Of a stretch of 64,000 nt of DNA, positions 28,980-29,652 are shown piece by piece. Numbering within the stretch: the first letter of the stretch is position 1; each line of letters opens with the position of its first letter. The translations under genes were made by a program, and so were the position numbers. Source of the stretch: Rhizodiscina lignyota (lineage: Eukaryota); the NCBI GenBank assembly GCA_010015805.1, contig ML978134.1:496001-560000 (forward strand). Reading direction: 5' to 3'. A model generated the notes under the pieces. That model made no database searches and was not told the DNA's origin. It was given only the letters and a program-made list of their open reading frames with translations.

Positions 28980-29652
28980 TTAACTGCAGAACTGCATGTG
29001 GTTAGCAATCTCATTTTCCTACATAGAGAGGTCTGTGAGCGTACAGTAATCTATCACGACAATTGTTAGCATTTCCTCGAACCAAGGTGCTAGCTCCGAC
29101 GGATGGGGTTGCGACTTACAATTACTGTACTTCCATCGTGTTCGATCTGGCAAGGCTGTACAATCACGCGTGTATTAACAACGAGCTGTCCTAACGAAGA
29201 GGAGGAGGAAGCCTCTACTAACATTTCCATCTGCCTGGAATTCCCGACGTTCAATTAGCCGATAGTCTCTTACAAATGAGAGCATTTGCTATACAGCGGG
29301 ACTTACTGTACACTGGAAACCGGTTGTAGAAGGGCAGGCTGCTACAAGGTTTCCAGAAACGCAGCACTAGATCCTCGAGTGTGAGAATGGTCGTTGTCCT
29401 CTTGTTTCAGAATGACGTACACCTTCCTAAGAAGATCATTAATCGGGAATCGAAAGAAGAGCAGCGGAGGACTCGCTTACATTTCCAAATGGGTTGCCTG
29501 GAATTTCATCACAGGATTGGCAATTCTACTTTTACTTAGTTGGCGCCACCCGGAGATTGTTCATTGTGGCAACTGACACCATTGGAACTCTCCTGAGCGT
29601 TGGCAGCCTCGAAGAAGGCGACGAGTATGGCGATGGAAACGTGGAACTTCAT
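28980..29652 (-). CDS. Small secreted cysteine-rich protein (83 aa, 8 Cys), 8 exons including 6- and 12-nt micro-exons
   Basis: Exons 29652-29578, 29525-29481, 29426-29421, 29366-29307, 29234-29223, 29155-29120, 29050-29045 and 28991-28980; seven phase-0 GT..AG introns of 52-72 nt; protein MKFHVSIAILVAFFEAANAQESSNG-NCQSCDEIPGNPFGN-EG-CCVSGNLVAACPSTTGFQCT-ADGN-PCQIEHDGSTVI-IT-FCS*. Confidence 0.85.

Follow-up and report, generated by a model that had tools for sequence, protein, structure and literature searches.

The DNA analysed here, a window of 64,000 nucleotides from Rhizodiscina lignyota, corresponds to C14:496001-560000 in a genome of 33.4 Mb and 33 contigs. Its gene content is of the filamentous ascomycete type with short introns, and the genus Rhizodiscina has been assigned to the Dothideomycetes (PMC7082219). 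We focus on a minus-strand gene for a predicted secreted miniprotein, composed of eight exons (75, 45, 6, 60, 12, 36, 6 and 12 nt) and seven introns (52, 54, 54, 72, 67, 69 and 53 nt), the latter all GT..YAG and all in phase 0. Joined, the exons constitute one open frame of 83 codons, for a product of 83 aa. A UstYa gene and a repeat precursor lie close by, and a macro-domain gene and two HET genes come next in the neighbourhood. The features are as follows.

29727-29721, minus strand: TATA box TATAAAA, identified in the sequence 68 nt upstream of the start codon
29652-29578, minus strand: exon 1, 75 nt, with the start codon, a predicted 19-residue signal peptide (hydropathy peak 3.0) and mature residues 1-6
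29526..29577, minus strand: intron 1, 52 nt, placed by the splice-signal models
29525-29481, minus strand: exon 2, 45 nt, with Cys1-x2-Cys2
29427..29480, minus strand: intron 2, 54 nt, retention of which gives an in-frame stop
29426-29421, minus strand: exon 3, 6 nt, two residues, Cys-free
29367..29420, minus strand: intron 3, 54 nt, in-frame stop if retained
29366-29307, minus strand: exon 4, 60 nt, with Cys3-Cys4, Cys5 and Cys6
29235..29306, minus strand: intron 4, 72 nt, in-frame stop if retained
29234-29223, minus strand: exon 5, 12 nt, four residues, Cys-free, apparent copy of the exon 2 end
29156..29222, minus strand: intron 5, 67 nt, weakest junction, its acceptor tied under one of two models
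29155-29120, minus strand: exon 6, 36 nt, with Cys7
29051..29119, minus strand: intron 6, 69 nt, with the strongest signals, and giving an in-frame stop on retention
29050-29045, minus strand: exon 7, 6 nt, two residues, Cys-free
28992..29044, minus strand: intron 7, 53 nt, with a rival acceptor 8 nt downstream that is 3.4 bits lower
28991-28980, minus strand: coding part of exon 8, 12 nt, with Cys8 and the stop codon
27380-27828, plus strand: repeat precursor with seven DPFKWD cores, tail-to-tail with the miniprotein gene
25748-26620, minus strand: UstYa (DUF3328) gene, diverging from the repeat precursor

With the eight exon lengths as the sole constraint, 16 GT..AG paths fit the locus. The intron set was instead assessed with a splice model of donor, branch and acceptor, trained on 38 seed introns outside the gene (11 seeds of the same kind arise in shuffled DNA) and blind to both reading frame and cysteines. 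At threshold 0 this model returned exactly the seven modelled introns together with a weak eighth. At threshold 3 it retained six of the seven, with a score of 33.9 that none of 300 shuffles reached (maximum 20.1), and five or more introns were found in none of 714 genome tiles; the best neighbours of three tiles score near or above 33.9 (top 43.9), with two to three strong introns. Since a parse based on signals recovers the seven introns and no shuffle reaches its score, their choice goes beyond chance, and the eight exons and seven phase-0 introns claimed in the sequence-only reading are borne out at the DNA level, as is the TATA box it had noted upstream. Moreover, all four introns with a length divisible by three (2, 3, 4 and 6) carry an in-frame stop, and retention of any intron breaks the eight-cysteine pattern. 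The 343 strong introns of the genome yielded 60 phase calls, 19 of them phase 0; judged by this small sample, the probability that all seven introns are phase 0 is ~3e-4, and that all seven share any one phase is ~3e-3. The weak eighth intron would lie in the 3' UTR (28965-28904, minus strand), with a good donor, a weak acceptor and a score of 0.9.

The encoded protein opens with a leader that has a nine-residue hydropathy peak of 3.0 and an AxA before residue 20, congruent with the signal peptide postulated earlier. Following the cut predicted at residue 19, a mature part of 64 aa is left, in which eight cysteines are separated by gaps of 2, 12, 0, 8, 7, 6 and 13 residues, precisely the spacing and approximate length given in the sequence-only reading. 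Cysteine thus makes up 8 of the 64 mature residues, above the threshold of at least 5% used for small secreted cysteine-rich proteins (PMC8596622), and the predicted product is also short, as members of this group are, with the N-terminal signal peptide predicted from the hydropathy peak and AxA. Hence, as a very probably real gene, it appears to add a member of unusual layout to a broad and known class. The remainder of the mature chain is rich in G, S and N, with seven D/E, no K/R, one H and no W/Y, resulting in a net charge of about -7.

This composition bears on what the protein may do. Cationic antifungal peptides such as AFP/PAF and the defensins have a net positive charge, the reverse of what the miniprotein exhibits, and the predicted chain argues against a cationic membrane-active peptide; membrane lysis of that kind is unlikely because there are seven D/E and no K/R. 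The earlier proposal of an effector or antimicrobial is thereby weakened, while that of a small secreted eight-cysteine protein holds. It is conceivable, if unlikely, that the product is instead a divergent version of a knottin-, crambin- or PAF-like antimicrobial or toxin fold, directed at a specific target in competing microbes. The cysteine order C-C-CC-C-C indeed resembles that of knottins and hevein, but the spacings and loop lengths of knottins, hevein and CFEM proteins differ from those of the miniprotein. Size and disulfide content fit this reading, and folds of this type occur commonly in the orphan secreted proteins of Venturia, for which a role against microbes has been proposed (PMC9632046). 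Against it stand the acidic charge and the absence of K/R and W/Y, as well as the searches with single exons, where exon 4 had no match in the PDB at E 10 and none of three exon pieces (20-38 aa) matched a Pfam family at E 1.

Relatives were not recovered elsewhere, in searches whose protein and family queries were pieces of 20-54 residues or contained intron-derived residues, so that distant relatives would be missed. The exon-1 frame gave no candidate among proteins of 29-95 aa and 17 among those of 96-2000 aa, none of them at E 10, and the read-through frame of exons 2-5 gave a single candidate among proteins of 55-177 aa, again none at E 10. The exon-1 part had no usable match in the Atlas. 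In metagenome DNA, 596 pattern matches yielded none that could be confirmed as a relative, and a combined cysteine and splice pattern occurred at 116 or more metagenome loci; among the matches listed, the best non-cysteine score was 6 and none was like exon 4. A phmmer search of the exon 2-5 frame against 1.84 billion representatives returned one match, a 1350-aa repeat protein with E 5e-4, which we rejected as chance because the alignment falls mostly on the intron-derived residues 20-70.

The sequence-only reading had suggested a search for paralogues, yet DNA and exon 1, 2 and 4 queries detected only the locus itself in its own genome, at a sensitivity where distant paralogues would be missed. 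Two cysteine patterns, compared by eye through the first 100 of 218 and the first 100 of 129 matches (C1 to 1.74 Mb of C5), shared no place. A lead at C4:2106718 was set aside as a paralogue, as we take it to be a P450 heme motif. Of 42 other strict matches to a 6-nt exon in the genome, all were parsed and six read, without a cysteine-rich secreted gene among them. The same survey brought up a likely 6-nt exon in a UstYa gene (C3:504166-504197) and another in the 5' leader of a gene that is presumably cyclin B (C20:374515-374543). Separately, a Gly-rich gene at C1:2977052-2980086 (minus strand) consists of three or more units in tandem, each an exon plus an intron, and has strong splice signals.

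Four of six tested neighbour proteins are present in NCBI and UniRef, as singletons. Since the frames of the miniprotein gene are unmatched although these neighbours are in NCBI, the gene looks unannotated, and the singleton status of the neighbours together with the missing matches suggests an organism without close sequenced kin in that protein collection. The same absence could alternatively mean that the gene is silent or decaying, or that its true product is another splice form, and the splice signals lend this some substance. A second model, retrained on 261 seeds, ranked the modelled acceptor first at six of the seven donors (seven of seven under the other model) and placed the intron-5 acceptor in a tie with an alternative site (0.0 vs 0.6 bits), use of which would end the protein at 66 aa with six cysteines. 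Similarly, a second acceptor at intron 7, weaker by 3.4 bits, would give 135 aa with ten cysteines. We nonetheless judge such an outcome very unlikely: all signals are intact, the 66-aa form would leave the strong introns 6 and 7 in the 3' UTR, and the RIP-like depletion at 29001-29500 (TpA/ApT 1.03, product index 0.98) is too weak to suggest decay. In addition, gene predictors commonly miss tiny exons, as reported for other fungi (PMC12230235, PMC11121469). Overall, we are highly confident that the miniprotein gene is real, and consider it likely that all seven modelled junctions are exact. It is very probably an intact, single-copy, lineage-restricted gene that annotation has overlooked.

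The tiny exons also hold traces of their origin. New to this analysis, exon 5 and the start of intron 5 are, judged by their alignment, a diverged copy of the exon 2 end and intron 2, as follows.

29505-29453, minus strand: duplication relic, copy A, comprising the exon 2 3' end, its donor and the 5' half of intron 2
29242-29193, minus strand: duplication relic, copy B, comprising the intron-4 acceptor, exon 5, its donor and the 5' half of intron 5

The copies agree at 39 of 48 aligned bases, a score reached by none of 100 Markov shuffles, by one of 100 shuffles that keep splice signals and by four of 100 genome tiles. In a pairwise test of the 21 intron pairs, this pair was the sole outlier (0/2000 shuffles) once overlap artefacts had been removed; low p values for pairs 2-3, 6-7 and 4-5 reflected overlap of the compared units and were dropped. 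The AG that ends intron 4 aligns with a coding AG in exon 2, located 17 nt before the exon-2 donor, and a 5-nt gap in copy B makes exon 5 12 nt long with the frame kept. Thus, local duplication probably made at least one micro-exon, exon 5, with copying inferred to run from exon 2 to exon 5. In such a scenario the exon 2 end would have been duplicated along with the donor and intron that follow it, the coding AG in the copy would have been recruited as the intron-4 acceptor, and the gap would have set the new exon at 12 nt, saving the frame. This putative origin fits the 'imprecise' type of intron gain that has been described, in which a duplication is accompanied by use of a latent splice site (PMC3443670). 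The duplication covers one of the three micro-exons and leaves the uniform phase 0 of the seven introns unexplained. A 9-nt match between the exon-4 end with its donor (29311-29303) and the exon-6 end (29130-29122, 6 nt before the exon-6 donor), both on the minus strand, is weak and could be another remnant of that duplication. A triplicated module of exon, intron, micro-exon and intron was considered and rejected, as introns 2, 4 and 6 are unlike one another, and likewise introns 3, 5 and 7.

The layout has also been read as functional, with frame-preserving skipping of micro-exons diversifying the loops. If exons 3, 5 and 7 were skipped combinatorially, a single disulfide frame would come in as many as eight versions that differ in loop length, and several features invite this reading: all exons are symmetric and in phase 0 (p ~3e-4), Cys-free exons alternate with Cys-bearing ones, and omitting any one of exons 3, 5 and 7 would leave the frame and the eight cysteines intact, with one loop shortened. 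Skipping of exon 6 leaves seven cysteines. A regulated micro-exon has moreover been reported in Trichoderma, but with no reads joining exon 1 to exon 3 (PMC11121469). That the three tiny exons are all Cys-free is expected by chance (probability 0.32), the junction that would skip exon 3 scores 3 to 8 bits under the plain junction, and loss of exon 5 would trim the Cys6-Cys7 loop from six residues to two. A study across several fungal species, which proposes intron definition as prevalent in fungi, furthermore counted skipped exons as 3% of the alternative-splicing events (PMC3925392). Preservation of frame and cysteines holds in principle, whereas skipping as a working mechanism is unsupported, and we regard a combinatorial cassette as very improbable. 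Micro-exons as such are not rare in fungi: in Coprinopsis, about 9% of gene models include an exon no longer than 15 nt (PMC12230235). What has been called rare is a gene with numerous small exons in a single phase, the aphid bicycle genes being the example (bioRxiv 10.1101/2021.09.24.461719), and a literature search, which covered few subscription papers, found neither a description of such a gene in fungi nor combinatorial micro-exon variation of a fungal secreted protein.

The surroundings of the gene offer another possible context. Its stop codon lies 1152 nt from that of the repeat precursor (27828), in agreement with the approximately 1.15 kb estimated before, and the pair of UstYa gene and precursor is of the dikaritin RiPP type, to which the miniprotein might be a partner, as a co-regulated carrier, a self-protection factor or a co-acting secreted protein. 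Such proximity is a ~1% event per gene given some 36 UstYa loci in 33.4 Mb, and the block of 24.0-29.9 kb has a GC of 0.42-0.48, lower than most of the window. Several observations speak against a partnership. The tail-to-tail arrangement means that no promoter is shared with the precursor, and a crude finder for Cys-rich secreted proteins gave candidates in 7 of the 35 remaining UstYa regions (10 kb) vs 3 of 20 control regions, none of these candidates having more than three introns or the cysteine spacing of the miniprotein. A like gene beside UstYa/DUF3328 genes, the mark of a dikaritin-type RiPP component, was accordingly not seen again in those 35 regions, so that the pairing does not recur. 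The main text of a kingdom-wide KEP survey does not use the word 'cysteine' (PMC7329392). We therefore give little credence to a link with the RiPP pair, and the 'interaction island' of the sequence-only reading loses its footing as a functional unit. Genome-wide, 76 UstYa/DUF3328 (PF11807) matches merge into about 36 loci, several with two to four copies, a number that is, at the level of family matches, a large RiPP-type repertoire. The block 24050-30780 is single-copy in a DNA search of the genome, and rather than a functional unit, the locus gives the impression of a variable region in which lineage-specific genes accumulate.

Further observations were made in and around these regions. The stretch 24501-25000 has a GC of 0.42 and RIP-like indices (TpA/ApT 1.17, product index 0.82), yet is single-copy by DNA search. 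The repeat precursor probably includes a putative one-nucleotide exon at base 27529: its intron 27477-27528 (15-16 bits) alone leads to a stop at 33 aa, and adding intron 27530-27578 (5-8 bits) gives a frame of 115 aa that spans all seven cores; the frame is likewise restored by a single intron with its end at 27541 or 27547, but these two sites lie outside the five best acceptors. Elsewhere, a candidate secreted protein of 131 aa with ten cysteines in regular 8/11-13 spacing is located about 4 kb from a UstYa gene (C4:724100-734099, minus strand, start near 8977 of the region), and two small Cys-rich secreted candidates lie near UstYa genes, one of 62 aa with six cysteines (region L226, 3448-3636, plus strand) and one of about 75 aa with nine (region L220, from 7316, plus strand).

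Aggregated, the data lead us to favour, with moderate confidence, a gene that is spliced one way and whose product works outside the hypha, where it binds to or coats something. The seven introns would be removed one by one and constitutively, resulting in one main mRNA, and the protein would be secreted and cut after residue 19. The acidic 64-residue miniprotein would then fold, locked by four disulfides, in line with its even number of cysteines, and engage a target outside the hypha, be it the fungus' own wall, the surface of a substrate or a protein from a microbe nearby, in a mode other than cationic membrane lysis. The function suggested here is by analogy with a class known from fungi, that of small Cys-rich proteins with surface activity (PMC8596622). 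The micro-exon layout would mainly be a record of gene history.

If spliced as modelled, the gene contributes a secreted miniprotein that is unannotated and whose cysteine spacing is unmatched in any family compared here; it would also imply that genes of this kind evade annotation and sequence search, and that counts of fungal secreted proteins are too low. It further keeps a legible trace of how a micro-exon can be born: a stretch is duplicated, a coding AG is taken up as acceptor, and a gap saves the frame. The significance would be much greater if the three spacer exons were skipped, as the same literature search, with its few subscription papers, found no fungal precedent. In its boldest form, to which we attach only a slim chance, the gene would be a fungal counterpart of animal micro-exon genes, in which a new disulfide fold has the loops of a secreted binder tuned by combinatorially skipped spacers, at least one of them born by local duplication.

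Several known families invite comparison at the protein level. The CFEM consensus features a C-x3-C start, a CxC pair and a conserved Asp, and the miniprotein has a C-x2-C start, no CxC and, for its exon pieces (20-38 aa), no Pfam match. Hydrophobins share eight cysteines, secretion and a similar size, but their C-CC-C-C-CC-C pattern has doublets at Cys2-3 and Cys6-7, whereas the miniprotein has one, at Cys3-4 (PMC8596622), so that the sequence-only reading was right to set it apart from them. Hyphosphere proteins (HFS) are likewise small ascomycete proteins with a signal peptide, eight cysteines and no enzyme domain; theirs are eight single cysteines (C-CXXXC-C-C-C-C-C), in contrast to the C-x2-C and single CC doublet found here (PMC8596622). 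The miniprotein thus departs from the HFS pattern, and no sequence relative was found. Closer in setting are the knottin-, crambin (Ecp39)- and PAF (Ecp10)-like orphan effectors of Venturia and Fulvia, which are also tiny, disulfide-rich, secreted, from Dothideomycetes and without sequence relatives (PMC9632046). The miniprotein differs from these in being strongly acidic.

At the gene level, schistosome micro-exon genes encode secreted proteins from tiny symmetric exons, with skipping variants. Internal exons of 45, 6, 60, 12, 36 and 6 nt, all phase 0-0, are likewise tiny and symmetric, but the miniprotein gene is fungal and single copy and has introns of 52-72 nt. The aphid bicycle genes similarly have a secreted product, very small exons of one phase and a homology that is invisible to sequence search, but form a large family with about 17 exons, phase 2 and CYC motifs, as opposed to a single copy with eight exons and phase 0 (bioRxiv 10.1101/2021.09.24.461719). 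The family expansion of both groups has no parallel among our queries, which hit only the gene's own locus in the genome and would miss distant paralogues. Finally, intron gain by tandem duplication resembles the relic in that a stretch is duplicated, a latent splice site is used and nucleotides are added to the coding sequence; unlike those cases, the copy described here carries an existing donor and intron, is separated from its source by about 260 nt that include other exons, and gives rise to a micro-exon (PMC3443670).
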